Origin: Candidatus Omnitrophica bacterium UBA6253 | Lineage (GTDB): Bacteria > Omnitrophota > Gorgyraeia > Gygaellales > Profunditerraquicolaceae | NCBI GenBank assembly: GCA_002441245.1 | Contig: DJVP01000008.1 | Span: forward strand, 170,540-234,539 | Direction of reading: 5' to 3' | DNA length: 64,000 nucleotides | Shown here: piece after piece, positions 5,404 through 64,000 of the stretch | Position numbering within the stretch: position 1 is the first letter of the stretch | How the letters are laid out: each line of letters begins with the position of its first letter | Made by a program: the position numbers and the translations under genes | Notes under the pieces: model-generated | Told to the model about the DNA's origin: nothing | What the model saw: only the letters and a program-made list of their open reading frames with translations | Databases searched by the model: none

Positions 5404-7743
5404 ATGAATGGATTATTTGTAATATTCAGGAAAAAGCTAGAAGAGACACACATTCGCAAGGAATTAAGAAGAATAAAAATGCGGATGATCTCTAATGGCG
5501 ATTTGAAGATTTGGCTTGATGATGCCAGTAGATTAAGGTTATTTTATAAAAATGTTGAATTAACCAAAGGTTATGGCTTAAGCTCTAGTATTTTATCCGA
5601 AGGGGTTTGGCACCATTCACATGAAACAGTTTTTGAAGCAGAGAAAATCTCCGAAAACCAGATGCGTATCTTTGTGTTTTTCCCGGGCATACCTATACAC
5701 CAGGAATGGTTGATAAAGATCGATTCTCGGGAGTCAATTAGTTATGAGGTTAACACAGAATTAATAGATAATATGCGGATAGATAATTTGAAAGCGGATT
5801 TTTTTATTTCAAAATCATATTTCCGTCGGGTATATAAATTAGAGGATGTAGTATTTCCACAGGAGTTCAATGCCTCTTGGAATATATTAAGCAATATGCC
5901 CAAAGATAACTTTATTGGCTGTACATCATTAAAGCCGGAGTACCCCAGTATATGTTTAGAATCTAGCAGTGGCGTTAAAAATTTATTTAGTGCAGGCAAT
6001 ACCGATTTCGTCTTGTCTTCCCGCGTACTTGAAGCCCAGATTGAAGAAATCGATGAATATCTCAAACCAGGGGTATATGAACATTTTAAAATCCATATAC
6101 AATTCTATCCGGATAAATCCGTGCTTGAAGATATGCTGGCTAAAATAAGAACTCAGAAGCAGCTTGAAGAGGAAAATCGAAAAAAAGGAGTGTTTGAGTA
6201 TTTCAAAAAAGAGCCGGCCGATCTTTTGTCGTGTAAAGAAGGCTGCATATATTTGTATGGAGATTCTGATCTTCTACATGATAAGATTAGCGGCGTACCA
6301 GGTGATTTTAACAAGATTATTGGAAAAATAAAAAAGATTGCGGGTAAGGGCTCATTTTATATCGGTGTATCGAGATATAATTTTTTCTGCCTGCATGTAA
6401 TTGCGCAGTATATTGCGGATATTATTGGCCAGCGCATTGATTTGCGTTCCCTTAATATAACTTTCTTGCCAGGCTGTAATCTTTACGCCAGCTTTGGTAT
6501 TTATTTGAATGAACTCACCCGGCGCTTAAGCCAGCATAAGATATATTTTTATCTAAAAGATACAGGTTTATTGGAGCTATTAGAAACTATATCCTCACAG
6601 GCTGATCAGTACAATGAAAGAGATCTATTGAGGCTGCTGGGGGTTATCGCGGAGCATCCTTTTATAGGCCCGCAGACGATAGTTCTGGATACGTATCATC
6701 AATGCAATACTGATTGTGTCCATTGCTGGATTCATACTCCTAGGCGTAAGAACCCCGGCCAGATAAGGGAGCTGGAAATGGATATCAATTTGTATAAACA
6801 GATCATAGATGATGCGGCAAAGATATTATGCGACGAGATTATCATCCAGGGCGATGGAGAACCTATGCTTGATGATAGGTTTATGGAGATGATCACTTAC
6901 GCCAGGAACAAAGGATTAAAAGTGCTCTTTTTTACAAACGGGATACTTTTAGATAAAAAGAAGGCGGCCGAGATAATCAATTTGGAGATAAATGAAATAT
7001 TCTGTAGCTTGCCCGCGGGTACGGCAAAGACATACGCCTTAATTAATTCAAAACAGTCTGAAAATTCATTTAGTCTAATTGAAAAAAATCTCAAGAATCT
7101 TATTGGTATGCGCAATAATGCGGGTAGAAGTAAACCTTTATTACAAATGACGCATGTTATACATAATTTAAACTACCATGAAATAGAAGAGATGGCCAGG
7201 TTTGATGCCTCTATTGGGGCAGATAAGGTAAGGTTCTATTTGGTAAGGCTGGACAATAATATTAAACCCTTGAAATTAAAATCCAGCCATATCAAAAGTA
7301 TCCAGGAATCCTTGGAACGCATAGAACCTTTTCTTAAAGCCAAAGGTATAGAGTTACAAGATAATATTCATTTTCAGCTTCAGCATTATAATCCAGAAAG
7401 CGGGGATTGGTCTGGGGAAACCTTTTCTAATATGGGTTGCCCGGTAGGGTGGTTTTTTTCGTTAGCATTATTCAAAGGAGAAGTAAGTATGTGTTGTCAT
7501 CTGCGCATAGTTGATATTTTAAAAGAAAAAAGTTTTGCGCAAATCTGGGATTCTGTTCGCTACAATGAAGTCCGAATTTATGCGAAATATCTGAATAAAC
7601 ATAAGAATGAACATTTTTTAAACGGAAGGAAGTTATTCGATGACTCTTGTCGGCATTGCGATACGCATCAGGTTATTCTAAGGATTAACCAGCTTATGAA
7701 CAAATATCACCTGGACAAATTTTATCAAGAGAGTTTTTTATGA
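5404..7743 (+). CDS. radical SAM protein with C-terminal Cys-rich (SPASM/twitch-like) region and ~420-aa N-terminal extension
   Basis: 779 aa. rSAM triad CNTDCVHCW at about residue 440. C-terminal cysteine clusters (MGCPVGW, MCCHLR, CRHCDTHQ). The N-terminus carries the ELTKG module (KIWLDDASRLRLFYKNVELTKGYG). Paralogous to the 33568 gene. Confidence 0.8.
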   Translation: MNGLFVIFRKKLEETHIRKELRRIKMRMISNGDLKIWLDDASRLRLFYKNVELTKGYGLSSSILSEGVWHHSHETVFEAEKISENQMRIFVFFPGIPIHQEWLIKIDSRESISYEVNTELIDNMRIDNLKADFFISKSYFRRVYKLEDVVFPQEFNASWNILSNMPKDNFIGCTSLKPEYPSICLESSSGVKNLFSAGNTDFVLSSRVLEAQIEEIDEYLKPGVYEHFKIHIQFYPDKSVLEDMLAKIRTQKQLEEENRKKGVFEYFKKEPADLLSCKEGCIYLYGDSDLLHDKISGVPGDFNKIIGKIKKIAGKGSFYIGVSRYNFFCLHVIAQYIADIIGQRIDLRSLNITFLPGCNLYASFGIYLNELTRRLSQHKIYFYLKDTGLLELLETISSQADQYNERDLLRLLGVIAEHPFIGPQTIVLDTYHQCNTDCVHCWIHTPRRKNPGQIRELEMDINLYKQIIDDAAKILCDEIIIQGDGEPMLDDRFMEMITYARNKGLKVLFFTNGILLDKKKAAEIINLEINEIFCSLPAGTAKTYALINSKQSENSFSLIEKNLKNLIGMRNNAGRSKPLLQMTHVIHNLNYHEIEEMARFDASIGADKVRFYLVRLDNNIKPLKLKSSHIKSIQESLERIEPFLKAKGIELQDNIHFQLQHYNPESGDWSGETFSNMGCPVGWFFSLALFKGEVSMCCHLRIVDILKEKSFAQIWDSVRYNEVRIYAKYLNKHKNEHFLNGRKLFDDSCRHCDTHQVILRINQLMNKYHLDKFYQESFL

Positions 7744-9926
7744 GAATAGCACTTGTTAATCTGCCCTGGTACAATTTATGCAGATCGGGTGTAAGGGCCG
7801 GGTCGCGCTGGCCACATTTGATGGCCCGGCATGAACGGGGTTATCTTCCCTACCCTTTTTTCCTGGCTTATGCAGCGGCATTATTAAAAGAGAATAATTT
7901 TGAAGTGATCTTGATTGATGCCATAGCCGAAGGTCTTTCTTACACCGTCTGCATCAACAGGTTGCGTAGCCTTAAATGCGATCTCTATGTTTTTGAAACA
8001 TCAACTGTAACCCTAAAGCATGATATCGGGCTCATAAAAAAAATAAACAAACATACCCCCGTAGTTATGTGCGGACCGGATGTAAATATACAAAAACCCT
8101 CTTTTATAAAGAATTATCCGTTTATTACTTATGTTATTTCTGGTGAATATGAATTAACTCTTTTGGATTTAGCCCGGCACATAAAGGATAAGAGAGGCTT
8201 AAGCGATGTCCCTGGGCTCATTTACCGTCTTGGAAGCAAAATAACTGTTAACCCATTGCGTGAACTCGCTGATCTAGATAAGCTTCCCTGGCCTTTACGG
8301 GAAGGCCTTCATATGACAAATTATAATGATGCTCCCGGTAATATGCCGCTTCCTTCGGTTCAGATGGTTGCCAGCCGGGGATGTCCTTATAGGTGCAAGT
8401 TTTGTCTTTGGCCGCAGGTGATGTATCAGGGGAACAATTACAGGTCTAGGGATGTTAAGGATGTAATAAAAGAAATGAAGTTTTTGGTGAACAATATGGG
8501 GTTTAAATCCGTATATTTTGATGATGATACATTTAATTGCGGCAAGCCCAGAATGCTTGCTTTTTGCGATGAGATTAAGAAGCAAGATTTGACAGATACC
8601 CCCTGGGCGATCATGGCCCGTCCTGACCTTATGGATGAGGAAATACTAATGAGGATGAAAGAGGCGGGGTTATATGCCGTTAAATATGGGGTTGAGTCGG
8701 CTACCCAGAGTTTACTTGATGGCATCAACAAAAATATGGATCTTAAGAAAACAGAGAAAATGATCCGTTTTACAGAGCAGCTTGGGATTAAAACTCATCT
8801 TACGTTTACATTTGGTCTACCGGGAGAGACAAGAGAGAGCATACGCAGGAGCATTAATTTCGCAATTTACCTTAATCCTGACTCTGTACAATTCTCCATA
8901 GCTACTCCGTTCCCGGGAACGGAATTTTACCGGGAAATTGAGACAAGTGGACTTCTTCTTACAAAGGAATGGTCAGAGTATGATGGTAACAATAAGAGCG
9001 TTATTTGTTCCGACAATTTAAGTAAAAAAGAATTAGAACAAAGTATCCGTGTTGCTTATGGCCGATGGCGCAACCATTATTTAAACAGGCGGTATCTTAA
9101 GGGGCAAAGGCTGAATATTTCTCTGCCCGGACTGGTTTTATTTTCTTTAAAAAGACGCGGAATATTTTTGACAGCAATAAAGCTGTTAAGTTTTTCATGC
9201 CTTCAGATTAAGGCACTTGTTTTAATAAGAATAAATCGGCTTATGGATATTTTTAAAAGAAGCTCTGGGCATCTAAATTCTATAGCTATGGGCAGGGTGG
9301 GGCTATTTTTTGACCACTCAGGAATACGCCTTTTTTGGGAGAATAAAGAACTTACCAGAGAAGATGGTTTTAGAAGTTGTAATGGTTTGCCAGAAGGCAA
9401 GAAAATAAAAAGCGGCGCATTTACGTTTGGGGATTTTAAGAAAGAGGCGGACAACCAGATTTCATTAAGGAAAAGATACGCCGATTCTGATATTGAAGAG
9501 GATTGGAAATTTGAGATCATTGATGAAAAGCAGATTGATTGGAGCGTTAAAGTACATAATAGGCATGGCGGTATAACTTCCGGCGAGTCAAGGCTTGCGC
9601 TTATTTTATCAGATGAATATCAAAAATGGTTAGATTCATGGGGGGAGGGCGGTTTTTATTCTGTTTTTGATAATCTTGAAGTTGAATTAAGAAACCCAAA
9701 AACAAAAATGGTTGGCGTGAGGGGGAGGAAAAAATTGACAAGGGAAATTCCGACTATACTATTAGATGCTGCTTCTAATAACGGTATAACTGCTTGTATA
9801 CGGAATAGCCCTGTTTTAGGGGCACGCATATTAGAGGTTAGACAGGCAGGGGATATTTTCTCCGCCCGGATAAAAATCGTAGAAGAAGGTTTTAATAAGC
9901 GCAAAAGACGCCCCGGGCCATTATAA
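7740..9926 (+). CDS. class B (B12-binding domain) radical SAM protein with ~250-aa C-terminal extension
   Basis: 728 aa. N-terminal Rossmann-like B12-binding region (MRIALVNLPWYN...EVILIDA). rSAM motif SRGCPYRCKFCLWP. The C-terminal extension contains GLFFDHSGIRLFWENKELTRE and DWKFEIIDEK modules. ATGA overlap with the upstream gene. Confidence 0.8.
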   Translation: MRIALVNLPWYNLCRSGVRAGSRWPHLMARHERGYLPYPFFLAYAAALLKENNFEVILIDAIAEGLSYTVCINRLRSLKCDLYVFETSTVTLKHDIGLIKKINKHTPVVMCGPDVNIQKPSFIKNYPFITYVISGEYELTLLDLARHIKDKRGLSDVPGLIYRLGSKITVNPLRELADLDKLPWPLREGLHMTNYNDAPGNMPLPSVQMVASRGCPYRCKFCLWPQVMYQGNNYRSRDVKDVIKEMKFLVNNMGFKSVYFDDDTFNCGKPRMLAFCDEIKKQDLTDTPWAIMARPDLMDEEILMRMKEAGLYAVKYGVESATQSLLDGINKNMDLKKTEKMIRFTEQLGIKTHLTFTFGLPGETRESIRRSINFAIYLNPDSVQFSIATPFPGTEFYREIETSGLLLTKEWSEYDGNNKSVICSDNLSKKELEQSIRVAYGRWRNHYLNRRYLKGQRLNISLPGLVLFSLKRRGIFLTAIKLLSFSCLQIKALVLIRINRLMDIFKRSSGHLNSIAMGRVGLFFDHSGIRLFWENKELTREDGFRSCNGLPEGKKIKSGAFTFGDFKKEADNQISLRKRYADSDIEEDWKFEIIDEKQIDWSVKVHNRHGGITSGESRLALILSDEYQKWLDSWGEGGFYSVFDNLEVELRNPKTKMVGVRGRKKLTREIPTILLDAASNNGITACIRNSPVLGARILEVRQAGDIFSARIKIVEEGFNKRKRRPGPL

Positions 9927-9938
9927 AAACACGATAAG

Positions 9939-11189
9939 ATGCGAAGTATATTTATACATCCTTTTAAAAGAACTTTTTCCAGGTATCTGGACACTCTGGG
10001 TGTTCTAGACGGTTCTTTTGCTTACAAGGGGCCTGGTTCTGTCCAAATAGACCTGACAAATAACTGCAATAATAATTGCATAGGATGTTGGTGTAATTCC
10101 CCTCTTTTGGGTGAAAAAGAGATTTCACCCGACGTAAAAAATCAAACTCTTCCCTATGGGCGGGTGATCGCCCTGATAGATGAATTATATCGTATGGGCA
10201 CGCGCCATATCTATTATGCCGGAGGAGGGGAGCCTTTTATGCACCCGCAGATTATGGAAATAATCAGACACACTAAGAAGCGGGGATTAGAATGCTATAT
10301 TAACACAAATTTTACCTTGATTGATGAAAAGAGGGCCAAGAAGCTCGCGGAAGAAGGAGTAGATTCGTTGACCGTGAGTATTTGGGCCGGAACTGCCGGC
10401 ATGTATGCCTTGACACACCCCAGCAAAAACGAAGGGACTTTCCTGAAGATTAAAGAGACGCTGCAGTATCTTAATGCGGTCAAGAAAAAGCATCCTTTCG
10501 TAAAGATTTATAATGTCATCTTTAATAAGAATTATCATGAGTTAAGGACTATGGTTGAATTTGCATTAAATACTCGTGCGGAAGCCGTGGAATTTACCGT
10601 AATCGATACGATTCCGGGAAAGACAGATTCTTTGCTTTTAAATAATTCGGAAAAACAGGCTTTGCTTGAAAGTTGCTTCGGGATAAATAAGCAATATGAG
10701 AATAATGGACTGGCGGATAAGATAAAGCTGCTTAATTTTGAGCAATTCATGCGCAGGATTTCAAGCAGTGGCTCAAAATCCGCGGAGTATGACTCGGATG
10801 TCATTGGCAAAATCCCCTGTTATGCCGGGTGGGCTTTTGTCAGGATATTAGCGGATGGCAATGTTAATTCCTGCTTAAAATCCCACAGATTTCCGGTAGG
10901 CAATATTTTTAAGGAAGACTTTGGATCTATATGGAATAATAGCCTGCAGAGGCTGTTTAGGGAGAAAACATTTAAGATGGATAAAGATGATCCTTTTTTT
11001 TCCCTGATTGGCAATGATCCTGATTCTAGAATGGGGTGCTTTAAGAGCTGTGATAATATGGGGCATAATATGGACCTGCATGGCAGGTTTGTTTCTTTGA
11101 GCCCGGTAGAGCACAGGATATTAACCGGTATTAGTGGCATGGTAAAACGGGCGCGAGGAACAAAACTTAAGCAGGAAAGGAGCAACTAA
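9939..11189 (+). CDS. radical SAM protein with C-terminal auxiliary Cys cluster region
   Basis: 416 aa. CNNNCIGCW triad, GGGEPF motif, C-terminal cysteines (CYAGW, NSC, CFKSCDN). Core related to the 5404 and 33568 genes. Confidence 0.75.
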   Translation: MRSIFIHPFKRTFSRYLDTLGVLDGSFAYKGPGSVQIDLTNNCNNNCIGCWCNSPLLGEKEISPDVKNQTLPYGRVIALIDELYRMGTRHIYYAGGGEPFMHPQIMEIIRHTKKRGLECYINTNFTLIDEKRAKKLAEEGVDSLTVSIWAGTAGMYALTHPSKNEGTFLKIKETLQYLNAVKKKHPFVKIYNVIFNKNYHELRTMVEFALNTRAEAVEFTVIDTIPGKTDSLLLNNSEKQALLESCFGINKQYENNGLADKIKLLNFEQFMRRISSSGSKSAEYDSDVIGKIPCYAGWAFVRILADGNVNSCLKSHRFPVGNIFKEDFGSIWNNSLQRLFREKTFKMDKDDPFFSLIGNDPDSRMGCFKSCDNMGHNMDLHGRFVSLSPVEHRILTGISGMVKRARGTKLKQERSN

Positions 11190-11310: not shown

Positions 11311-12432
11311 TTGGAGGCAATTCAGCAGATAGCTAGTTTTGTTGAATTTTATATGCGTTCATTACAATATATCAAAGAGATTGGAAGTATTGTAAGGGGA
11401 GAAGTAAGGGCGTTATTCCCTGTATTCTCTAGGCCTGCCTGTATGCCTCCTGATTTTGTTTGTATTGGTATTACAGACGCCTGCATGCTTAGATGTAAGA
11501 TGTGCCAGAAATGGAAAGAAGATATTTTTATAAAAGACAAAACAGGTGAGCCTGCAGTTGAAGATTGGAAGCGTGCTATTTCTTCGTTGCATAAGCTTAC
11601 TGTTAAACCATTGCAAATAAATTTCGGCGGAGGAGAACCGCTTTTAAAAAAAGAGATCTTTGAGTTGGTCAGTTTTTGCAAACAAAACGGGTTAAAAACT
11701 AATATTGCTACCAATGGCTATCTTATAAACAAGGAAATGGCTAAACAAATAGCTGATTCCGGTTTGGATAGTATTATTATTTCTCTGGATAGCCTTTGCG
11801 AAGATACCCATGATTACTTGCGGGGTAAAAACGGCACATACAGGCAGGTGATGAATGCTTTGGAGTTGCTTGATAAATCCTGCGAAGGGCTTTATAAGGG
11901 TTTATGTTGTGTTATTTATCAGAAAAATATGGAAGATGTTTTAGGATTAGAGGCTTGGGCAGAAAAGGATCAGCGGATTAACTCGGTCTATTTTATGGCA
12001 GCTATGCAGCCTAATAACACAGCGCCCGATATGCGCTGGTATGAAAAAGAAGAATTCCAGGCACTCTGGCCAAAAGACCCTGTCCGGGTAGGTGCGATTA
12101 TCGATGAACTTATAAAAATAAAAAGAGGCAGGTCGAAGATCACCAACCAGATATCTCAGCTGGAGGCGTTTAAGCATTACTATAAGCAACCTGACCGCTT
12201 TGTTAAGAGTTCCCAATGTAATATGGGTGCGGCGCTGCATTTTAGCTCTTCGGGGGATATTTTTCTCTGTTACCGGTGGCAAGTTTTAGGTAATGTAAAA
12301 ACCGATGACGTTGCCTCTGTCTGGAATTCCCGCTTGGCCAAAGAAGCGCGGTTTGATATAGCAGCCTGTAAGGATAACTGTCATTTTTTGCTTAATTGTT
12401 TTTTTAAAGAAGGATACTCTTTTAAAATATAA
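11311..12432 (+). CDS. radical SAM/SPASM-type protein, tandem paralog 1 of 11
   Basis: CMLRCKMCQKW triad, FGGGEPLL, SLDS, C-terminal NCHFLLNCFF. Start uncertain: TTG at 11311, or ATG at 11353. Confidence 0.8.
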   Translation: MEAIQQIASFVEFYMRSLQYIKEIGSIVRGEVRALFPVFSRPACMPPDFVCIGITDACMLRCKMCQKWKEDIFIKDKTGEPAVEDWKRAISSLHKLTVKPLQINFGGGEPLLKKEIFELVSFCKQNGLKTNIATNGYLINKEMAKQIADSGLDSIIISLDSLCEDTHDYLRGKNGTYRQVMNALELLDKSCEGLYKGLCCVIYQKNMEDVLGLEAWAEKDQRINSVYFMAAMQPNNTAPDMRWYEKEEFQALWPKDPVRVGAIIDELIKIKRGRSKITNQISQLEAFKHYYKQPDRFVKSSQCNMGAALHFSSSGDIFLCYRWQVLGNVKTDDVASVWNSRLAKEARFDIAACKDNCHFLLNCFFKEGYSFKI

Positions 12433-12471
12433 CCGGGACGGATGCGCTATTAGGATAAGAAAGGAATCATT

Positions 12472-13518
12472 ATGCAAAGCAGCTTAGATAAAAGATTTGA
12501 TTTAAAGAATAATCCTGGTTTTTTAAAGCCAGGTTTCTGTTGTATCGGCATTGTTGATACCTGCATGTTAGAGTGTAAGATGTGCCAGAAATGGAAGGAT
12601 GATCCTGGCACAAAGGGCATTTCTCAACCGACAACAGATCAATGGAAGATTTTTATCAGCCAATTGCGTGATTTGGTAGATGAGGGTTTTGAAATTGATT
12701 TTGGCGGCGGAGAAGCATTAATGAGACCGGATCTTTTAGAGCTGGTCTCTTATGCAAAGGGTCTGGGGTTTAGAAACGCGATAGCTTCCAATGGCTACCT
12801 GATTAATGACGAGATGGCCAAAAGGATAGTAGATTCTGGTTTAGACAGCATAGTTTTATCTCTGGATAGTTTAAAACCTGAAATTCATGATAGTATGCGT
12901 GGCAAAAAAGGCGTTACCGAAAGGGTTTTTAAGGCCATTGAATACCTAAGAAAATATTCAAAAGATATACACATAGGGATATGCACAATAATTATGGAGC
13001 AAAGCTTGGACGGTATTATTGATTTGGCGGAATGGGTAAATACAAATAGGGATAAGATGAATTCTATTTTGTTTATGGCTCCCATGCAACAGAATAATAC
13101 ACCTTGCGATCTGGAATGGTTTAAGAAAGCTGAATATAATTTTATCTGGCCAAAAAACAGTAAAAAGGTTCAGGATGTCCTTGATGAACTAATCAGGCGC
13201 AGAAAACTGGGCCACTGGATAGGTGATTCTATCCCGCAGTTAGAGGCCTTTAAATTATATTTTCAGAATCCCGCTAAATTCGTAAAAAATAACCCGTGTA
13301 ATTTAGATAGAGCCGTGCATGCCAGTTCAATTGGAGATATATATTTATGCTACCGCTATGGCGTGCTTGGCAATATTAAGAATGGAGATGATCTCAGGCA
13401 GATATGGAACTCGCAGGTGGCCAGTAAAGTCAGAGGCGAAGTAAGGCAGTGCGATGATAATTGTCATTTTCTACTCAACTGTTTTTTTGAGGGTGATTAC
13501 CCTTTTGGCGTGAAATAA
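12472..13518 (+). CDS. radical SAM/SPASM-type protein, tandem paralog 2
   Basis: CMLECKMCQKW, FGGGEAL, NCHFLLNCFF. SD AAGGAA upstream. Shares an identical 23-nt stretch with paralog 1. Confidence 0.85.
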   Translation: MQSSLDKRFDLKNNPGFLKPGFCCIGIVDTCMLECKMCQKWKDDPGTKGISQPTTDQWKIFISQLRDLVDEGFEIDFGGGEALMRPDLLELVSYAKGLGFRNAIASNGYLINDEMAKRIVDSGLDSIVLSLDSLKPEIHDSMRGKKGVTERVFKAIEYLRKYSKDIHIGICTIIMEQSLDGIIDLAEWVNTNRDKMNSILFMAPMQQNNTPCDLEWFKKAEYNFIWPKNSKKVQDVLDELIRRRKLGHWIGDSIPQLEAFKLYFQNPAKFVKNNPCNLDRAVHASSIGDIYLCYRYGVLGNIKNGDDLRQIWNSQVASKVRGEVRQCDDNCHFLLNCFFEGDYPFGVK

Positions 13519-14522: not shown

Positions 14523-14523
14523 C

Positions 14524-15570: not shown

Positions 15571-15579
15571 CCAACCATT

Positions 15580-17884: not shown

Positions 17885-17901
17885 TTAATTTGCGATTTTA
17901 C

Positions 17902-19179: not shown

Positions 19180-19250
19180 GGTGGAATAAGCAGTATATTA
19201 TATCCGATTATTTTTATGCAGCTGGTTTTGTAATACGGGAGGAGGATAGG

Positions 19251-20249: not shown

Positions 20250-20312
20250 TCATCCAGGGTTTAATTAATATGGGATTTTATATGCATGATATTTATAACT
20301 TGAGAGGATGGA

Positions 20313-23017: not shown

Positions 23018-23020
23018 CCG

Positions 23021-24950: not shown

Positions 24951-24970
24951 AAATTTAACCGAGAACCTCT

Positions 24971-25966: not shown

Positions 25967-25991
25967 ATTAATGTCCGCAGAAGGAATAAAA

Positions 25992-27362: not shown

Positions 27363-27365
27363 ATA

Positions 27366-28340: not shown

Positions 28341-28362
28341 GCCTCCTACCTATTTTACTGGA

Positions 28363-36589: not shown

Positions 36590-36614
36590 TATATTCAACG
36601 AATATTAAATAACA

Positions 36615-38933: not shown

Positions 38934-39000
38934 TCACACAAGGTGCCATTTTTATTTTATAAAACATCGTAAAAAGCATGGCTTTGGAAATTAAAGATAA

Positions 39001-43701: not shown

Positions 43702-43702
43702 T

Positions 43703-44635: not shown

Positions 44636-44639
44636 AAAT

Positions 44640-45812: not shown

Positions 45813-45818
45813 TAAAGA

Positions 45819-48009: not shown

Positions 48010-48029
48010 ATTAGCCTTTTCGTGTAATT

Positions 48030-52475: not shown

Positions 52476-52497
52476 ACTGATGAAAATTAGGGGATAG

Positions 52498-55353: not shown

Positions 55354-56235
55354 ATGCATAAAATTAATCTTTTAAATATTAAATGCCCATTGTGCGGGAT
55401 TTCGCAAACAAAGGAATATATTTTTGTGAAGGATATGACTGTTTATAAATGCATCAATTGCAAAATGATGTTTCAGGATGCGTTACACCTGCCTGCCTCG
55501 GGAGATAAATGCAGCGAAACATTCTATAGCTTAGAACAGGCAGCAATTGAGCTTAAAACTGCAATTGAGAATGAGAGGATGCGTATAATACAGGGGCATA
55601 TTAACCGTGATATAAAGGGGATGAGGATACTTGAAATTGGTTCAGGATTAGGGGTTCTTGGTAACATGCTTAAGGGTAGACAGGCTGAATATCTGGGTAT
55701 TGAGCCATCGGTCTCTCTTTATAATGCATCTATCCGGAATTTTCCTTATCTAGAAAGCAATATAAAAAATACCTATTTTGAAGAAGCCCGCATTGATAAA
55801 GATTATTTTGATCTTATTCTAATGGTTGATGTCCTGGAGCATATACCAGACCCGGTTGGCTATATTAAAAATGTCAGGCAGCATCTCAGGAATGGAGGTA
55901 TTTTATATATAGAGATTCCTAATGAAGATCTTCTGCAGTTAAAAGGATGGGTAAGAAGAAAATTGGATTTTTATTTTGGTTATCCCACTCACCCGTTGCA
56001 TGTCAGCCTTTTTACTAAAAATACGCTCAGCATATTATTAAGGAGTTCGGGATTCAGGCCCGTTTTTGTTTCTCAGAATTCAATTCTCGGAAATAAATCG
56101 CGGATGAAGTATTTATTGAAAAAAAGATACTCTTTGTTTGTAGATATTTTATGCAATCTTTTCAATTTCTCAAAGCTAGATTTAATTCTACAGCAGGGCA
56201 ATTTAATAGGCATAGGGTTGAGAGATGGTTTATAA
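55354..56235 (+). CDS. class I SAM-dependent methyltransferase with N-terminal Cys4 zinc-ribbon
   Basis: N-terminal CPLCG...CINCK. Motif I ILEIGSGLGVLG. Motif DVLEHIPDP. Confidence 0.75.
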   Translation: MHKINLLNIKCPLCGISQTKEYIFVKDMTVYKCINCKMMFQDALHLPASGDKCSETFYSLEQAAIELKTAIENERMRIIQGHINRDIKGMRILEIGSGLGVLGNMLKGRQAEYLGIEPSVSLYNASIRNFPYLESNIKNTYFEEARIDKDYFDLILMVDVLEHIPDPVGYIKNVRQHLRNGGILYIEIPNEDLLQLKGWVRRKLDFYFGYPTHPLHVSLFTKNTLSILLRSSGFRPVFVSQNSILGNKSRMKYLLKKRYSLFVDILCNLFNFSKLDLILQQGNLIGIGLRDGL

Positions 56236-58015
56236 ATACAAATTTCTATATAAAACTTGTTTAATCCTGTTGGTTTTGTTCAGCCTGTATATTTGCTTTT
56301 GGAAGTTAGGGGTTTCCAGTTTTTATGATTTGAATGAGGCTTATCTTGTTCAATTAAGCAAAGATTTTTCAGAAAACATAAATTTAGCCAATCCGGCCGG
56401 TAGCGCAACCTTTGCTCGCCTTTACGATCCCCTGCCGGTTTTTTTAACTAACTTATCATTTAAAATATTCGGCGAATCGGAGTCTTCAGCGAGATTCTTC
56501 CCGGCATTCTTTGGCTTCCTAACTATTTTACTAACTTTTATATTTGCAAAATCTATATACAGAAATAAAACCGTTGCCTTATTCTGCGCGTTTATACTTG
56601 TCACAAGCTATCAATTTATTTTTAACCGGGGTATCAGGTCTGCGGATGGGTATGCGATACCTGTTTTCTTTATGTTAACTTTCATATTTTTAATATGGAG
56701 AAGCCGCCAAGATGTGAAGTTTTTTTACTTATCAGCAATTCCTCTGGGGCTTTTAGGCTTATCTATAACCTTTGGTTTAATTTTTATATTAGGCTTGTTT
56801 ATTATTTTATTATTTCAGTCTTTGGATAGGAGATTCTTTGGTTTGAAACAATGGGGGATATGGCTATTGTTATTAATAGTAACTATAAGCCCTTGGATAG
56901 CATATCTGTTAATAAGTAAGCAGTATCTGAATTATTTTAATTTTTATTTCAATTTTATTGTATCCAATATTGCCCGGATAAAGATATTCGGCTTGGGGTT
57001 CCTGCAGGAATTTATTTCATTGGATAAATTTGATTTAGCCGCCTCCGATCATTATAATCCTTTAATACTTTGGAATGTGCTAAAATTCGGATTGTTCCCC
57101 TGGAGTATTATGCTTATACCTTCCTTTGTGTTTTTATTTATACGTTTATTCAAAACAAAAGAATACCCTCCGGCAGACAAATTAATTTTTTCCTGGATAC
57201 TGCCGACAATCATAATGATTATGGCAATTACGATATTTACCAGGTCATGGTGGATAAATATTCTATGTCCCGCTTTGGCAATAGTGGTAGGTAAATTTAT
57301 TTATGATTTTGTTTGGGGTTTTCGTAAAAATACTGCTATTTCATTTCTTTTATCCTCATGGTTTATTGCAATGCTCATAGTAACTCAGCCATTGCAGTTA
57401 CATCAGGTTGGGTATAATCCTGTCCCTTGGATGGAAAGCGGTTTGATATCAGGCAGCCTGCGATACAATGTCAGCAACCCCATATTCTGGATTTTTTGTT
57501 TAACTGTTGTTATATTCCTGATGCAGATAAGTTTTAAAAGATTAAATATGAAGTTCGCTAATAAATATATTTTTGTGCAAATATCAGCTGCGCTTTTTTT
57601 TGTAGTTTCCCTTGTTAATATTATCTATTTAGTTAATAATTCTCAAAATAAATCAGAAATGGATACTATTGGGAGCCTGATAAATAATGAGAAGGCTATA
57701 GCGCCAGGCAAAAAACTTATTTTATATAATATCGCTCTTTTGGGAGGTGCCTCTAGGTTAACTCCAGAGTTAAAAGAGCGTTGGAGTGATTACTATTATT
57801 TGAATAAGATAGGTATGCCCAAAGAGAAGATTAATGAAAATCTCCCGTTGATCCTTGAGTTGTTTAACAGCCACAAAGAAGATATCTGCTTGATGAAAAG
57901 AGAGGATTTCAATAATTTAATAAAGTTGAGGCAAAAAGAAGAAATGAAAATAAGTATTATCTGGATTGGTAATGAGTACGTGCTTTTAAATATGAACAGT
58001 AAATTAGCTATATAA
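56225..58015 (+). CDS. GT-C fold membrane glycosyltransferase (GT39/ArnT-like)
   Basis: Polytopic N-terminal region with an acidic first loop (YDLNEAY). More than 12 TM helices. About 150 aa soluble C-terminus. Confidence 0.65.
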   Translation: MVYKYKFLYKTCLILLVLFSLYICFWKLGVSSFYDLNEAYLVQLSKDFSENINLANPAGSATFARLYDPLPVFLTNLSFKIFGESESSARFFPAFFGFLTILLTFIFAKSIYRNKTVALFCAFILVTSYQFIFNRGIRSADGYAIPVFFMLTFIFLIWRSRQDVKFFYLSAIPLGLLGLSITFGLIFILGLFIILLFQSLDRRFFGLKQWGIWLLLLIVTISPWIAYLLISKQYLNYFNFYFNFIVSNIARIKIFGLGFLQEFISLDKFDLAASDHYNPLILWNVLKFGLFPWSIMLIPSFVFLFIRLFKTKEYPPADKLIFSWILPTIIMIMAITIFTRSWWINILCPALAIVVGKFIYDFVWGFRKNTAISFLLSSWFIAMLIVTQPLQLHQVGYNPVPWMESGLISGSLRYNVSNPIFWIFCLTVVIFLMQISFKRLNMKFANKYIFVQISAALFFVVSLVNIIYLVNNSQNKSEMDTIGSLINNEKAIAPGKKLILYNIALLGGASRLTPELKERWSDYYYLNKIGMPKEKINENLPLILELFNSHKEDICLMKREDFNNLIKLRQKEEMKISIIWIGNEYVLLNMNSKLAI

Positions 58016-59403
58016 TGTTTGTATCTTCGCCGGTTATTTTTATAAACCCTCCGGGGCCAGCTAATCTTTACAGGAGCATGGTATGTGCTTTTGTTTCAAA
58101 GGCTAAATATATCTGGCAGCCTCATGATTTTATTAATCTGAGCGCCCAGATACCCGCAGAATACAAACTTAGATTAATAGATTGCAGTATAAATAATTAT
58201 GAAGCTGATTATGTTTTTGATGAAATAGGCATTTCGCACCCAGGTTTATGTGTAGCTGCTATCTCTAGTATTTTATTTAATGAAGACCTGATTTTTCTTA
58301 AAAAGCTCAAATCAAGATTTCCGGGTCTAAAATTACTGGTAATCGGCAATATCCTGCTGGAGAAATATTTCAGGAAGCAGGTTTTGGAGTATGCCGATGG
58401 TTTGATTTTGAATTCTCTGGATGTAGATCTGTGCTCATATATAAAAAATGGTACGACTAATTCGAAAAACTTGATACTTAAAGACGGATCTCCCGGTGAT
58501 TCCGGCGGATCTAATGACAAGGTTTCGCTAAAGAAGGTCTCTATCGGTATCCCGAGGCATTCCTTATTTTTAAATAAGCGGTATCGTTTCCCGTTTGCAA
58601 AATCATATTTGTATAGCGCGGTTACTACTCAATTCGGATGCCCTTTTCAGTGTGCTTATTGCTCATGGGCAAAGATTCCGGTATCGTACAGGGATTATAC
58701 AGAGGTTCTCGAAGAGTTGAAATTAGCGACAAGCTTAGGCATAAAAAACATTTTTTTTACTGACCCCAGTTTTGGGTTCCCAAAGAAGAATGCCTTTGCG
58801 CTTGCAGAGGGTATTATAAAAATAAAATTGGGTATTAAGTGGTCTTGTTATGCAAATCCGTTATTATTAGATAAAGAGTTCTTAAGTTTAATGAAAAAGG
58901 CAGGGTGTCACACATTAATTACTGGCATAGATGATGGTGATTTTGATATGTTGCGCCAGGAGTTCAATAGGGATGTGCCTGAAGCAAAAATAATAGAGTT
59001 TTGCAATATTTGCCATGATCTAGGCATGCAGGTTTGTGGAGATTTTATTATCGGCCTTAACCAAGCCAATGAATCTTGTCAGCGCATTATTAATATTGCC
59101 AAAAAACTCGATTTAGATTATGCGTCTTTTAATATATTTTCTATCCTGGTTGGTTCTCTGGTAAGGGAAAAGCTGATAAAAGAATGCAAGTTTAGCCCCT
59201 GCGGTGCGAGCCTTGACCCCAGCGGCAATAGCGGGCAAATAGACAAGAGACTGGTCCATTTGAGGAATTTAGCCGTGAGAAAATTCTATATGCGGCCAAG
59301 ATACCTTTTAAAACGTATGATGAAAATAAAAAGTTTTAACGAATTTGTGATACAATTTGAGGAGATGATAGGGCTTTTCAGCAAACTAAGGAATGTTAAA
59401 TGA
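58015..59403 (+). CDS. radical SAM protein with degenerate B12-binding-like N-terminal domain
   Basis: rSAM motif QFGCPFQCAYCSWA. N-terminal Rossmann-like region of about 200 aa. TAATG overlap with the upstream gene. Confidence 0.7.
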   Translation: MFVSSPVIFINPPGPANLYRSMVCAFVSKAKYIWQPHDFINLSAQIPAEYKLRLIDCSINNYEADYVFDEIGISHPGLCVAAISSILFNEDLIFLKKLKSRFPGLKLLVIGNILLEKYFRKQVLEYADGLILNSLDVDLCSYIKNGTTNSKNLILKDGSPGDSGGSNDKVSLKKVSIGIPRHSLFLNKRYRFPFAKSYLYSAVTTQFGCPFQCAYCSWAKIPVSYRDYTEVLEELKLATSLGIKNIFFTDPSFGFPKKNAFALAEGIIKIKLGIKWSCYANPLLLDKEFLSLMKKAGCHTLITGIDDGDFDMLRQEFNRDVPEAKIIEFCNICHDLGMQVCGDFIIGLNQANESCQRIINIAKKLDLDYASFNIFSILVGSLVREKLIKECKFSPCGASLDPSGNSGQIDKRLVHLRNLAVRKFYMRPRYLLKRMMKIKSFNEFVIQFEEMIGLFSKLRNVK

Positions 59404-60455
59404 GGCCTGATAAACAGCTAAAACAATGGATATTTGCCGCTAGGATATTCGGTAAAGGGCTTACTTGGCACGATTATTTAAAAATAACCAGGTATATATT
59501 TTTAAAACGTATTTTGCAAAAAAATATTCCCGTCTCAGCGGTTTTTGCTATTACATACAGATGCCAATGCAACTGCGTGCATTGTTCGGTAGGGGCATAT
59601 AAAAGCAAACCGGATGAGGAATTGACTACCCGGGAAATCAAGAATGCCATTAATGCATTATCCAAATTATGGATATTCAAGATTACGTTTTTTGGAGGGG
59701 AGCCTTTGTTGAGGGAAGACCTGTTTGAATTATTGAATTATGCCGGTTCGCTTAGAATGCGCGTTTCGATAGATACTAATGGTTTAGCCTTAACCCCTGA
59801 GGTTGTTAAGAAGTTAAAATTGGCCAAAATAGCGAATGTGAATATAAGTTTGGATAGTCCTGACCCGGATATTCATGATAAGCTAAGAGGGGTGCCCGGA
59901 TGTTTTGAGCGGGCAATCAGCGGTATTAAGCTTTGCGTAGCAGCAGGCATTCCCTGTCTAGTATCGACTTATGCCTCGAAAAGGGCTATAGCTAACGGTG
60001 ATATGAAGAAGTTAATCAGCCTTTCCCGGTCACTTGGCGCCTCCGGAGTTAAAATCCTTTTGCCTATTATTTCTGGTAAATGGCTTGGGAGCATGGAAGA
60101 GAAACTTTCTTTGCAGGAAGAAGAGGAGGTCAGGAAGTTACTTGATCCTTTGTTCGTCTACATAGAGGATGCCTTGTCAATGCTGCGAAACTCATCAAAG
60201 AGATGCTCAAGTTTAGATAAGAACTTTTTTTATATATCTCCATTCGGAGATATACAGCTCTGCCCTGCCGTACCGTTATCCTTTGGCAATATAAGGCATC
60301 ACGATCTCAGCAGCATTGTAAAAAAAATGTGGGCTCATCCGACAAGCAATATAAAGTGCGAGGGCTGTTTAATCAACAATAAAGTATTCCGGGACAGGTA
60401 CTTTTCTAAAATAACCGAGAAAAATAACCTACCAATTTCCGCATATGAGGCTTAA
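59400..60455 (+). CDS. radical SAM protein with C-terminal auxiliary cluster (SPASM/twitch-like), Cys-rich triad CQCNCVHC
   Basis: ITYRCQCNCVHCSVG, FGGEPLL, C-terminal CPAV...CEGC. Confidence 0.75.
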   Translation: MRPDKQLKQWIFAARIFGKGLTWHDYLKITRYIFLKRILQKNIPVSAVFAITYRCQCNCVHCSVGAYKSKPDEELTTREIKNAINALSKLWIFKITFFGGEPLLREDLFELLNYAGSLRMRVSIDTNGLALTPEVVKKLKLAKIANVNISLDSPDPDIHDKLRGVPGCFERAISGIKLCVAAGIPCLVSTYASKRAIANGDMKKLISLSRSLGASGVKILLPIISGKWLGSMEEKLSLQEEEEVRKLLDPLFVYIEDALSMLRNSSKRCSSLDKNFFYISPFGDIQLCPAVPLSFGNIRHHDLSSIVKKMWAHPTSNIKCEGCLINNKVFRDRYFSKITEKNNLPISAYEA

Positions 60456-61476
60456 AAGTTACATAGAGCATCAATTCCTAATGTTAAAGATCTTTTTATC
60501 GGTATCGCCTCTGTCTTTATATCCCAGAATTATAATCAACGTGATAAAAAACGATATTTTGCGTTTATATTCTCCTTCTTCCGCAGTAATTGGCCTTACC
60601 TATTTATGCCAGTGTCAATGCGTTCATTGCTCGGCATCTTTATACAAGAAAGATACTAGAGGAGAATTGACTTTAGCAGAAATTAAAAAACTTTTAGATG
60701 AAATTAAAAGCCTTGGGGTGCCGCGCATAAATTTAAGCGGGGGAGAGGCTTTATTAAGAAAGGATATCTTCCAGATAATAAAATATGCCCGTAATAAATT
60801 TGTGACTGTCCTGGAAACTAACGGTCAACTTTTAGACGAAGAAAAGGCTGTGGAGCTGAAGGCCGAAGGTATTTCATGCGTAGCCGTGAGCATAGATAGT
60901 CATAAGCCAGAAATTCATGACAAGTTGAGAAACCTGGGAGGCTGTTTTAAAAAAGCCATAAGGGGAATATCTTATTGCTTAAGAAATAAAGTACCATGCT
61001 TGATTTCTACTTATATCACATCCGAGAGAAATAATCCTGACGATATTAATGGCATGATGGCTTTAGCCGGAGAGCTTAAGGTTTTAGCGGTAAGGATTAT
61101 CCCGCCAAGGCCGGTAGGCAGTTTTTCTTGCCATACAAGTTCCTTGTTAAGCAGTGGACAGGAGCAGTGTTTAACAAGAGACATAAACCATAGAATAGCG
61201 TATTTTAAAGGGATCCCCGCGCCCAAAAATTGCGGGATATTTACTAAGTCGACATTTTATATTTCACCTTATGGTGAAGTTCAGCCCTGTGCGTTCCTGC
61301 CTTTATCCTTCGGCAATATTAGAAGACGGCCTTTACGGGTAATATTAAATGAAATGTGGGACCATGAGATATTTAACTTTCCGGATAGAAATTGTCTTAT
61401 ATTGAATAAAGAGTTTCGTAAAAGATATATCCCGGAAGAAAAGAACAGTTTATTTCCCATCGAAATTGTTAAATAA
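60445..61476 (+). CDS. radical SAM protein, paralog of the 59400 gene
   Basis: LTYLCQCQCVHCSAS, SGGEALL, C-terminal CAFLPLSFGNI. Confidence 0.75.
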   Translation: MRLKSYIEHQFLMLKIFLSVSPLSLYPRIIINVIKNDILRLYSPSSAVIGLTYLCQCQCVHCSASLYKKDTRGELTLAEIKKLLDEIKSLGVPRINLSGGEALLRKDIFQIIKYARNKFVTVLETNGQLLDEEKAVELKAEGISCVAVSIDSHKPEIHDKLRNLGGCFKKAIRGISYCLRNKVPCLISTYITSERNNPDDINGMMALAGELKVLAVRIIPPRPVGSFSCHTSSLLSSGQEQCLTRDINHRIAYFKGIPAPKNCGIFTKSTFYISPYGEVQPCAFLPLSFGNIRRRPLRVILNEMWDHEIFNFPDRNCLILNKEFRKRYIPEEKNSLFPIEIVK

Positions 61477-61491
61477 GGGCAAAGTATAATC

Positions 61492-63006
61492 ATGCATATT
61501 TGTTTTGTCCATAGCCATTATGAAAGCCTGGCCATAGAATACCTTTCCTCGATTTTAAGAAAAAACGGACATAAAACCAGCCTGATTTTTGATCCCGCAT
61601 TATTCCACAATTTCTTCTTGGACAAAAACTGCTTATCCAGGATATTTAATTTCAAAAATTATATATTGAGAAAAATTGAAAAGGATAGGCCTGATATGGT
61701 AGCCTTTTCTGTAATTTCGGATAACTACGGCTGGATTTTAGAAATATCAAAACAGATTAAATCCAAAATCAATGCTACCATTGTATTTGGAGGTATCCAC
61801 CCTACAGCTGTACCGGAGTATGTTTTAAATGACAGGGTGGCCGATTACATAGTCATTGGCGAAGGAGAACATGCTTTCTTGGATTTAGTAAATGCCCTTG
61901 ATAGAAAACAGAATGTAACCAATATTCAAAATATAGGCGGCTATAACGGCGGGAATATCTATATCAACCCGGTGCGTAAGCCAATAGCAGATTTAGATGC
62001 GTTGCCGTTTCCGGATAAGGATTTATTTTATGATCAGTGTAAGATGCTGGTTAAGGATAGCTACATGATCATGGGTAGCCGGGGATGTGCGAATAGCTGT
62101 AGTTATTGCTGGAATAGTACGATTCATAAGATTTATGGCGGCAATATTTATTATAGGAGGAGAAGCCCGGTTAATGTAATAGAAGAATTAAAATGGGCAA
62201 TAGACAAATATAAAATTAAAAAAGTAACGTTTTATGATGAAGTTTTTACTTCCGATAAAAAATGGCTTATTGAATTCTTAGGTTTGTATAAAGAAAATGT
62301 CGCCCTTCCTTATTTCTGCTGCGTTCACCCCAGGGATATAGATAAGAAAATAGTTAATCTGCTTTCGGATTCCGGTTGTGCGGCATTGAATATAGGAATC
62401 CAGACTGCCAATGAAATTACCAGGGTTAATATATTGAATAGGCCGGGTCCTAACCAGCAAATAATCGATGCATTGAGAGCTTTAAGGGGGACAAAAATAT
62501 TTGTTTATTCTAATATTATATTAGGTTTACCTAATGAGGCAGAAAGCGATCTTATTGCAACCTTGTCATTCTGTAATTCTTATAAAGCCGATTTGCCGGC
62601 AATTTACTGGTTACGTTATTACCCCGGGACAAGAATAGTCGAGATAGCCAGGAATAAATTGTTTATAACAGAAGATGAAGTTGCAAAGATAAACGAAAGC
62701 AAAGATTATTCCCCCTATGCCATATCAGGAAGCACTTATTGTAAGGATGCCGCGCGTATCGGCAATCTTATATTATTAAGCGGGGTTATACCCAAAACAA
62801 TCATGGATCGCTTAATCAGATCCCGTATCTACAGGTTTATGCCATCGGTAAATTTACTTTTTCCGGTAATCATATTTATGAGTTACCTGAAGGTTATTTT
62901 AGAGGGTAAGCGTTGCCCATTCCATTATTTCGGCCTGTTTACTTATTTAAAATATCACCTCTTTTATATATACAAAAAAATGTTTTGTTATTTGGGTATT
63001 TATTAG
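61492..63006 (+). CDS. class B (B12-binding) radical SAM protein
   Basis: Paralog of the 53849 gene (MHICFVHSHYESLAIEYLSSIL). rSAM motif SRGCANSCSYCWNS. Confidence 0.8.
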   Translation: MHICFVHSHYESLAIEYLSSILRKNGHKTSLIFDPALFHNFFLDKNCLSRIFNFKNYILRKIEKDRPDMVAFSVISDNYGWILEISKQIKSKINATIVFGGIHPTAVPEYVLNDRVADYIVIGEGEHAFLDLVNALDRKQNVTNIQNIGGYNGGNIYINPVRKPIADLDALPFPDKDLFYDQCKMLVKDSYMIMGSRGCANSCSYCWNSTIHKIYGGNIYYRRRSPVNVIEELKWAIDKYKIKKVTFYDEVFTSDKKWLIEFLGLYKENVALPYFCCVHPRDIDKKIVNLLSDSGCAALNIGIQTANEITRVNILNRPGPNQQIIDALRALRGTKIFVYSNIILGLPNEAESDLIATLSFCNSYKADLPAIYWLRYYPGTRIVEIARNKLFITEDEVAKINESKDYSPYAISGSTYCKDAARIGNLILLSGVIPKTIMDRLIRSRIYRFMPSVNLLFPVIIFMSYLKVILEGKRCPFHYFGLFTYLKYHLFYIYKKMFCYLGIY

Positions 63007-63014
63007 GGGCATCC

Positions 63015-64000
63015 ATGGCAAAAATATTATTCATCAGCGATAACTATCTTAATGAAAGCCTGGGCATTATGTGTCTAAGCGCTTATTTAAAAACCAGGAG
63101 CCACCAGGTGGATATCGCTTTGTTATCGGAATATAAAAGAATAGGTGACCTTTTAAGATTTATCCAGGGGGCTGCTTGTGACATTATAGGTTTTTCAGTT
63201 ATGACCCCGCAGGTATCTGCCTTCCGGCACGTATCCAAGATAATTAAAGAGACAACCCATCATAAAATTATCTGGGGTGGTCCGCATTGCACTTTGATGT
63301 CGGATGAAATTTCAGAAGGCGGCTACGTCGATATTATTTGTATCGGAGAGGGGGAGGAGCCGCTATTAGAACTTATGAACCGGATCGATGAGCGCAAAGA
63401 GTTTGATGATATAGCGAATCTTAGGATAAAGAAAAAAAACGGATGGGTAAATAATGAGCTTTGTAACTTGGAATCCGATTTAGATAGGTATCCATTCCCG
63501 GACAGGGCATTATATTATGACAAATATCCGTTTTTGCGCAATTTTGTTTTAAAGAGATTTGTTACTATGCGCGGCTGCCCTTATGATTGTTTTTACTGTT
63601 TTGCGCCTAACTTTAAAGAGATATATAAGGGCAAAGGGGAGTTAGTCCGCCGGCACAGTGCTGAATATATAATTGCCGAGATAAAATCTGTTATTTCTAG
63701 ATACCCAATCAAGATACTTCATTTTTCCGATGATACATTTAATGCGGACAAAGATTGGGTGATGAATTTCCTGGTAAGTTATAAAAAAATATCAGCTTGC
63801 CATTTACCTGTAATATTTCTGTTGTGGGGATTGACGAGGAAATGATAGGCGGCATGAAGGATGCAGGGTGTAGTGGGGTAACCTTTGGTCTGGAAAGCGG
63901 ATTAGAAGATATACGCTTCAACGTTTTGAATAAAAAATTCAAAAATGTTGATTTTATCGAAACATCGCGCCTGCTTCACAAACACAAAATAAGATTTGTA
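63015..64000 (+). CDS. class B (B12-binding) radical SAM protein, 3'-partial, interrupted by apparent frameshift in an A7 tract at 63783-63789
   Basis: MAKILFISDNY...MRGCPYDCFYCFAP. The frame ends at 63845, but homology to the 53849 and 61492 paralogs (..LPFTCNISVVGIDEEMIGGMKDAGCSGVTFGLESG) continues in a different frame, which would be restored by one extra A in the A7 run. Either a pseudogene or a homopolymer sequencing error. Confidence 0.65.

Follow-up and report, generated by a model that had tools for sequence, protein, structure and literature searches.

Here we describe a stretch of 64,000 nucleotides from Candidatus Omnitrophica bacterium UBA6253 (Omnitrophota; assembly GCA_002441245.1, contig DJVP01000008.1, positions 170,540 to 234,539 of the forward strand), called the window below, in which an export system for a cell-surface glycan is accompanied by 25 radical S-adenosylmethionine (SAM) genes, nine of them of class B (B1 to B9) and 16 others (S1 to S16). 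On balance we lean, though only slightly, towards the view that the window represents most of a giant envelope-glycan locus of the ATP-binding cassette (ABC) transporter-dependent route, conserved in Candidatus Omnitrophota, and that its predicted product is tailored by radical chemistry. The specific form of this reading, to which we give a probability of about one third, is a lineage-wide "radical tailoring line" of Omnitrophota, in which about 30 radical SAM enzymes (at least 12 of class B) would act on a lipid-linked glycan before export, and a putative beta-supersandwich domain, here named domX and shared by the transporter ATPase Wzt, the radical SAM enzymes S1 and B1, and a putatively periplasmic GT-C glycosyltransferase, would recognize the polymer. 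These enzymes add new members to superfamilies that are already known; what is new is a glycan export locus, conserved in the phylum, in which radical SAM enzymes predominate and which domX links together.

The radical SAM domain PF04055 is found in 25 of the 48 open reading frames (ORFs) of at least 150 amino acids in the window, that is, in the nine class-B genes and in 16 further ones. All but one of these ORFs (47) lie on the plus strand, the GC content is about 38%, there are just two intergenic gaps of more than 132 bp, and the packing is operon-like, with overlapping start and stop codons at 7740, 21362, 58015, and 59400. Such a density of radical SAM genes in one co-directional, tightly packed array is no chance pattern. 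The genomic region considered comprised the window and its 10-kb flanks, and within 10 kb downstream there are three more genes combining PF02310 with PF04055, one SPASM enzyme, a polysaccharide deacetylase, and further GDSL genes. The count of nine class-B genes given by an earlier sequence-only reading of the window is thus real, but it is a lower bound, as the locus holds at least 12, and the 16 other radical SAM genes had been overlooked.

The class-B genes, all on the plus strand, are B1 (7740-9926), B2 (21362-23017, with an inserted, degenerate N-terminal domain), B3 (30234-31682), B4 (40976-42538), B5 (48030-49517), B6 (53849-55324), B7 (58015-59403), B8 (61492-63006), and B9 (63015-64000), which runs off the end of the window. 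The architecture proposed for them, an N-terminal B12-binding-like domain paired with the radical SAM triad, is confirmed in all nine by Pfam, profile-profile comparison, and one structural model, and an N-terminal domain matching no B12-binding fold was not found among them. Their start coordinates are ORF starts; 63015 is an internal ATG of the ORF 62913-63845, and a sister assembly (GCA_028718365.1, contig JAQUMA010000002.1), 99.992% identical to the window, has the gene begin there as well. PF04055 scores 33.5-88.8 bits in all nine (gathering score 29.5), and the cysteine triad has the form CX3CX2C in eight and CX4CX2C in B3 (C212-TYAQ-C217-TF-C220; CTYAQCTFC at residues 212-220). PF02310 reaches its gathering score in six genes (30234, 40976, 48030, 53849, 61492, and 63015), stays below the threshold in 7740 (28.2 versus 32.1 bits), and gives no match at E<=0.01 in 21362 and 58015. 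When the N-terminal domains of the six clear PF02310 genes were aligned and used as a reference in hhalign, the domain of 7740 matched this profile with a probability of 98.9%, and that of 21362 with 92.5% as a single sequence and 97.9% (E 3.5e-13) as a profile of orthologues. For 58015 the single sequence gave only 8%, but the family profile gave 98.9% (E 2e-17, 177 columns); this family comprises 123 homologues, several of which themselves have PF02310. The AlphaFold model of 58015 (predicted local distance difference test, pLDDT, 94.4) has a Rossmann-like beta-alpha N-domain and superposes over its full length on AprD4 (template modeling score, TM, 0.73/0.75), TsrM, MgmA, OxsB, CysS, and TokK.

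Known class-B enzymes (TsrM, OxsB, TokK, CysS, and MgmA with solved structures; HpnJ, BchE, GenK, and Fom3) resemble the nine in having a Rossmann-like domain followed by the radical SAM partial barrel, with the cysteine triad at about residue 190-260. The nine differ from these families in scoring below every family cut-off and in the degeneration of cofactor-strand motifs in three of them; in addition, B1 carries an extra C-terminal domX, and B3 has the CX4CX2C spacing. The strand motif in question, SxL...GGxH, is mostly kept in six genes and degenerate in B1 (7740), B2 (21362), and B7 (58015). Identity among the paralogues is 23-42%, and they form at least four old groups: B6/B8/B9, B1/B3/B4/B5, B2, and B7. 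In B9 a frameshift occurs at a run of seven adenines (A7, 63783-63789), so that the ORF stops at 63845 and the frame continues off the window end; the sister assembly has A8 at this run and an intact gene of 484 amino acids, the difference being either a sequencing error or phase variation. A hydrophobic segment at residues 475-493 of B1, between its radical SAM core (amino acids 1-450) and domX, may be a membrane anchor or may span the membrane.

The remaining radical SAM genes are of the SPASM type, the Pfam SPASM domain being present in 13 of the 16. S1 (5404-7743, plus strand, as are the others) consists of an N-terminal domX (nucleotides 5467-6057), a linker, and the radical SAM/SPASM part, and is followed by B1 and by the radical SAM/SPASM gene S2 (9939-11189). 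S3 to S13 (11311-28340) are 11 paralogues of about 330 amino acids and one subfamily (30-46% identity), interspersed with B2 and three GDSL/SGNH genes (13518, 16409, and 17890). Two pairs of paralogues are S1 and S14 (33568-35271; 46% identity), the latter a radical SAM/SPASM protein without domX, and the AhbD/NirJ-like radical SAM genes S15 and S16 (59400-61476), of which only S16 has the Pfam SPASM domain. Within the array, S12 (25971-27362) still has the radical SAM triad; the auxiliary-cluster cysteines have been lost from it and a C-terminal tetratricopeptide repeat (TPR) domain gained. In the sister assembly S1 has 1084 amino acids and two copies of domX; the window version, with 779 amino acids, lacks about 900 bp between exact repeats of 177 bp (5998-6174) while its flanks are 100% identical, which is either an assembly collapse or the result of recombination.

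SPASM enzymes are typical maturases of peptides that are made by ribosomes and then modified post-translationally (RiPPs), the solved sequences nearest to the S-family include SkfB, CteB, and SuiB, and genome mining tends to call such Omnitrophota clusters RiPP or "ladderane" (PMC9902471). An array that matures a RiPP, with the ABC transporter exporting the peptide, nevertheless seems to us very improbable. The S-family aligns from its own N-terminus, as BlsE and MoaA do, and begins about 15-55 residues before the cysteine triad, whereas SkfB, CteB, and SuiB have some 100-130 additional N-terminal residues; the peptide-recognition extension of RiPP maturases, about 100 amino acids long, is missing. 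Pfam scans found a PqqD/RiPP recognition element domain in none of the 25 enzymes, and no peptidase or leader-cleavage domain in the window. The two gaps longer than 132 bp hold no plausible precursor ORF, the nearest relatives of the transporter are glycan and teichoic-acid exporters, and glycosyltransferases occur throughout the locus. In layout the S-family is closer to the small-molecule SPASM/twitch enzymes BlsE, BtrN, MoaA, and AhbD/NirJ, with which it shares the compact form of about 330 amino acids lacking a peptide-recognition domain and the SPASM cysteines; it differs from them in staying below every family cut-off, in its 11 tandem paralogues, and in S12 with its TPR domain in place of auxiliary-cluster cysteines.

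Export of a glycan is indicated by the beginning of the window. A polyprenyl-phosphate N-acetylhexosamine-1-phosphate transferase of family GT4 (449-1339, plus strand; WecA/MraY family, PF00953 106 bits, TIGR02380 WecA 90 bits, under the cut-off) is the likely initiator, and is followed on the same strand by the ABC-2 permease Wzm (1780-2559; PF01061, nearest to galactan Wzm and KpsM) and by the ATPase Wzt (2561-5395; 944 amino acids), whose nucleotide-binding domain (amino acids 1-230; PF00005) is nearest to TagH and galactan Wzt and precedes three tandem copies of domX. The nearest NCBIfam families of both transporter subunits are glycan and teichoic-acid exporters, with scores below the equivalog cut-offs, and the set expected of such export, an adjacent permease and ATPase, a polyprenyl-phosphate sugar-phosphate transferase, and glycosyltransferases, is complete. 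The glycan context suggested earlier is therefore borne out by the WecA-like GT4, Wzm/Wzt, GT1 and GT2 enzymes including an ArnC-like GT2, four GT-C enzymes, and short-chain dehydrogenase/reductase (SDR) dehydratase/epimerase. Pathways for O-antigen, galactan, and teichoic acid that depend on ABC transporters have the same WecA-family initiator, adjacent Wzm and Wzt, cytoplasmic glycosyltransferases, and a substrate-side extension of the ATPase. In contrast to the known Wzt proteins, the extension here consists of three domX of about 195 amino acids and not of PF14524, domX is also fused to biosynthetic enzymes, and, unlike in known loci of this type, more than half of the genes encode radical SAM enzymes.

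The window contains six occurrences of the domX segment, about 195 amino acids long, which was recognized in the translations and confirmed with phmmer and an iterated hidden Markov model (E 1e-41 to 1e-54). Three stand in tandem after the ATPase domain of Wzt, namely copy 1 (amino acids 232-438, nucleotides 3254-3874; hmmsearch E 1e-41), copy 2 (amino acids 476-677, nucleotides 3986-4591; E 3.5e-44), and copy 3 (amino acids 719-927, nucleotides 4715-5341; E 9.5e-55); the others form the N-terminus of S1, the C-terminus of B1 (nucleotides 9264-9851), and the C-terminus of the GT-C enzyme at 36615. No domX region has a Pfam match at E<=1; the same holds for residues 251-944 of Wzt (the C-terminal 694 amino acids), the Wzt_C carbohydrate-binding module PF14524 included. 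Pfam scans at E<=1 of the Wzt C-terminus, the S1 N-terminus, the B1 C-terminus, the S14 N-terminus, and a 320-amino-acid ORF of the window gave nothing meaningful. When 1.84 billion representative proteins were searched exhaustively with HMMER, only 592 had domX at E<=0.001, and the domain is previously undescribed. The best 150 of these 592 comprise 89 ABC ATPases with two to eight copies, 11 GT-C proteins, six S1-like SPASM proteins, and five class-B proteins, one of them a fusion of B1, domX, and S2, while 39 have no other recognized domain and are probably fragments. Natural fusions of a B1-like enzyme, domX, and an S2-like SPASM enzyme were seen in protein P0186 (1403 amino acids) and in locus L024 (17940-20996). 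Such a fusion suggests that B1 and S2 act together.

The association of these genes is retained elsewhere. One genome per GTDB species was scanned with three S-paralogues, which gave 23 strong loci, mostly in metagenome-assembled genomes (MAGs) of Omnitrophota or a single-amplified genome and in a few bins labelled Planctomycetia, Patescibacteria, Margulisiibacteriota, and Methanosarcinales. When the ORFs of the related loci were mapped onto the window proteins, the core order Wzm-Wzt-S1-B1-S2-S3-S4-S5-S6-(GDSL)-S8-S11-like copies was found in about 20 genomes of the Omnitrophota type; the distal part varies. B1 (7740) is a core gene, with orthologues in 15 of the 23 related loci (43-89% identity), and B2 was found again in several. 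Wzt has two to nine copies of domX in these loci and S1 one to three, and one B1 orthologue carries the domain at its N-terminus; the link between domX and these proteins is kept. Proteins identical to those of the window are present in MAGs of Candidatus Omnitrophica/Omnitrophota and in metagenomes of methanogenic hydrocarbon enrichments. Near-syntenic copies of the core cluster occur in seven of the loci (L012, L017, L018, L020, L023, L026, and L027), from MAGs labelled Patescibacteria, Planctomycetia, Margulisiibacteriota, and Methanosarcinales, and L027 has 15 S-paralogues within 21 kb. The core cluster under labels other than Omnitrophota could reflect mis-binning, mislabelling, or horizontal transfer. 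No account of this type of locus was found in the literature on Omnitrophota, on radical SAM/SPASM enzymes and O-antigen, or on cobalamin-dependent polysaccharide enzymes.

Family assignments, set on the observed gene content, architectures, conservation, and domain sharing, suggest the following order of events. The WecA-like enzyme would start the glycan chain on polyprenyl phosphate, and cytoplasmic GT1 and GT2 enzymes would lengthen it. Between initiation and export, the radical SAM enzymes, which must be cytoplasmic since they need reduced Fe-S clusters and SAM, would tailor the lipid-linked glycan, each class-B enzyme performing a different radical transformation on the sugars of the polymer or on their precursors. 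As candidate reactions we consider the C-methylation of unactivated carbons, the contraction of rings or formation of carbocycles in the manner of HpnJ/OxsB, and dehydration or deoxygenation of the AprD4 kind. Class-B enzymes already known to act on carbohydrates, which are precedents for methylation of sugar carbons, are GenK, GenD1, Fms7, and MoeK5 (PMC12931638). Wzm/Wzt would then export the tailored glycan, which outside the cytoplasm would be decorated by the GT-C enzymes, using polyprenyl-phosphate sugars made by the ArnC-like GT2, and by the membrane-anchored GDSL enzymes. The C-terminal modules of Wzt from E. coli O9a and Klebsiella O12 recognize the chain terminus. By analogy with the C-terminal carbohydrate-binding module of O-antigen Wzt, domX may serve as a common product-recognition module that gathers the exporter and the first radical enzymes at one polymer.

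Several points weigh against this reading. All radical SAM genes of the window, class-B and SPASM alike, score below the trusted cut-offs of the NCBIfam families, and as no equivalog cut-off is reached, no reaction can be assigned to any gene. Some of the best sequence matches are to families of lipid pathways (HpnJ and TIGR04072), and cobalamin binding is putative for every one of the nine. That radical SAM enzymes work on a polymeric lipid-linked glycan would, to our knowledge, be without precedent. Finally, domX resembles known folds only weakly (Foldseek E 0.01-0.05, TM 0.44-0.58, with no match at E<=0.001), and its region fails to match PF14524, the known carbohydrate-binding module of Wzt, so that domX could be a protein-protein scaffold.

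A docking function of domX, which would join Wzt, S1, B1, and the GT-C enzyme in one membrane complex, accords not only with these weak fold matches but also with the presence of the domain in four enzyme classes and with its variable copy number in Wzt (two to nine). We regard it as unlikely. The AlphaFold2 model of copy 3 (pLDDT 93.9) is all-beta, and its best matches, though weak, are exclusively supersandwich domains of carbohydrate-active enzymes; all the better matches are sugar-binding or sugar-enzyme domains. Moreover, should the C-terminal domain of the GT-C enzyme lie in the periplasm, as that of solved GT-C enzymes does, docking with cytoplasmic partners would be impossible for it. 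Recognition of the glycan by domX is the interpretation that we prefer.

As for the chemistry of the class-B enzymes, the sequence-only reading had predicted extensive C-methylation and had taken the cluster as a marker of access to cobalamin. Its class-B architecture and glycan locus stand, but neither of these two extrapolations is supported as stated. The best family match of B1 and B3 is HpnJ (TIGR03471; 249.4 and 214.9 bits versus a cut-off of 577.6) and that of B4 and B5 is BchE (TIGR02026; 181.7 and 209.3 bits versus 481), which is also the second-best family for B3 (30234) and B8 (61492). B6, B8, and B9 are closest to TIGR04072, the "lipid" or "ladderane" B12 radical SAM family (67-112 bits versus 360), B2 to ApyD (97.5 bits versus 750), and B7 to HpnJ (95.8 bits versus 577.6); the AprD4 model NF033070 gives at most 113 bits among the nine (cut-off 500). 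Hence no gene attains the cut-off of any characterized class-B family, and the best matches include HpnJ and BchE, which, like OxsB and ThnL, are non-methylating (PMC12931638). The comparison with methylase families recommended earlier did not yield the expected relatives: the models specific for methylases reach among the nine at most 59 bits (TsrM), 130 (PhpK), 87 (KedN5), and 115 (HpnR). These values are all far under the respective cut-offs, and in most of the nine genes HpnJ and BchE score higher.

The best structural match of B7 is AprD4 (PDB 6fd2; TM 0.73/0.75, E 2e-21), a radical SAM 1,2-diol dehydratase whose target is the aminoglycoside sugar of paromamine, and in a search of PDB sequences neither B3 nor B7 had a better solved match than AprD4. 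AprD4 and B7 have the same two-domain layout, and the substrate of AprD4 is a carbohydrate; with 16% identity, it is the fold alone that is similar, and AprD4 binds no cobalamin. Homologues of B7 in unrelated contigs sit amid glycan genes (YfhO, UDP-GlcNAc 2-epimerase, Wzy_C, PMT_2, polysaccharide deacetylase, and GT9). Next to one B7-family homologue, in locus L061 (3266-5410), a protein of 714 amino acids fuses a class-B radical SAM enzyme with a class I SAM methyltransferase, again in a glycan context.

That fusion is among the arguments for the view that most or all of the nine belong with Fom3, GenK, and TsrM to the cobalamin-dependent C- or P-methyltransferases, so that the glycan would be heavily C-methylated and the cluster would report cobalamin. 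The same view is favored by PF02310 passing in six of the nine, by the retention of the SxL...GGxH strand pattern, and by the fact that C-methyltransferases, sugar methylases included, are the largest known group of class B (PMC12931638). We nevertheless consider it unlikely, in view of the low scores of the methylase models, the structural proximity of B7 to AprD4, and the degenerate motifs of B1, B2, and B7. The existence of at least four divergent, old subfamilies makes nine different reactions likelier than nine methylations and argues for mixed chemistry, and on this basis the class-B enzymes probably catalyze several different reactions.

The value of the cluster as a cobalamin marker is further reduced by the observation that AprD4 and ArsL homologues carry the Rossmann-like domain and bind no cobalamin (PMC12931638), and by the degeneration of GGxH in three of the nine. 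The Rfam scan of the window matched only a tRNA and no cobalamin riboswitch, Pfam scans found no gene for cobalamin transport or salvage in the window, and cobalamin biosynthesis, present in <75% of Omnitrophota genomes, is not universal in the phylum (PMC10066038). The DxHxxG motif, characteristic of canonical B12 enzymes of the MetH/mutase type and proposed as a check of cofactor binding, is found in none of the nine genes; like them, the solved class-B enzymes lack it, and since these bind cobalamin base-off, without that histidine ligand and with no signature in the sequence (PMC12931638), its absence is uninformative. A PF02310 match should thus not count as proof of either cobalamin use or methylation.

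The family matches also raise the question of whether, rather than sugars, the target is a lipid of the membrane, either one resembling a hopanoid, ladderane, or tetraether or the aglycone of a glycolipid. HpnJ (249 and 215 bits) and TIGR04072 are among the best NCBIfam matches, the S-family has weak matches to the tetraether synthase Tes (PDB 7tol), the window has three GDSL "lipase" genes, and Omnitrophota occur in surveys of lipid-modifying radical SAM enzymes. We find a lipid target quite unlikely: the scores are far under the cut-offs (249 versus 577.6 for HpnJ, at most 124 versus 360 for TIGR04072 among the nine, and about 56 versus 450 for Tes), cyclase, isoprenoid, fatty-acid, and acyl carrier protein genes are all missing from the window, and HpnJ itself works on the sugar moiety of a hopanoid. 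A glycolipid product could reconcile the lipid and glycan readings.

The other genes of the window, on the plus strand unless stated otherwise, fit between the radical SAM genes. A tRNA-Leu(GAG) (152-234, from the Rfam scan) lies just upstream of the locus. The glycosyltransferases comprise two GT1, two GT2 (one ArnC-like), and four GT-C (PMT_2) enzymes. The first GT-C (28240-30171) is followed by the ArnC-like GT2, of the polyprenyl-phosphate sugar synthase type, together with the SDR 4,6-dehydratase/epimerase (31631-33496), and by a block of GT1, the second GT-C (36615-38933, with its C-terminal domX at nucleotides 38301-38885), GT1, and GT2 (35402-40973). The third GT-C is accompanied by a flavin amine-oxidase-like protein with a weak match to UDP-galactopyranose mutase (50865-53847), and the fourth by a class I methyltransferase (55354-58015). 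The three GDSL enzymes are membrane-anchored.

Genes for DUF362, the 320-amino-acid protein, which belongs to no recognized family, and three U32-family paralogues (42535-48009) form with B5 a module at 42535-49517. UbiU/V and TrhP, hydroxylases that need no O2, belong to the U32 family. A similar set, with B5-like, S15-like, and three U32 genes, was seen in a Thorarchaeota MAG (locus L030). The product of the sole gene on the minus strand (49573-50424) resembles PP-loop ATPases (SGGxDS motif; weak matches to DUF7411 and QueC); this gene interrupts the array, and a gap of 440 bp comes after it.

In surveys that cover biosynthetic gene clusters of Omnitrophota, such MAGs are credited with "ladderane" clusters and RiPPs (PMC9902471). 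Judging from the class-B and SPASM content, automated mining of such clusters may attach either label to loci of the kind described here. About 12 uncharacterized class-B and about 17 SPASM enzymes that share an inferable class of substrate are targets for enzymology, and domX would physically mark those that work with the exporter.

Nucleotide sugars and small glycosides are known substrates of radical SAM enzymes, which modify them one or two at a time. That these enzymes outnumber the glycosyltransferases in a conserved locus for an envelope glycan implies undescribed sugar chemistry in a phylum that has no cultured member, and the locus probably performs radical chemistry of unknown type on a cell-surface polymer. 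If the proposed tailoring is correct, a polymeric envelope glycan would for the first time be seen to undergo radical SAM chemistry, and these ultra-small, possibly host-attached bacteria would wear a hyper-modified coat of C-methylated, deoxygenated, or carbocyclic sugars.

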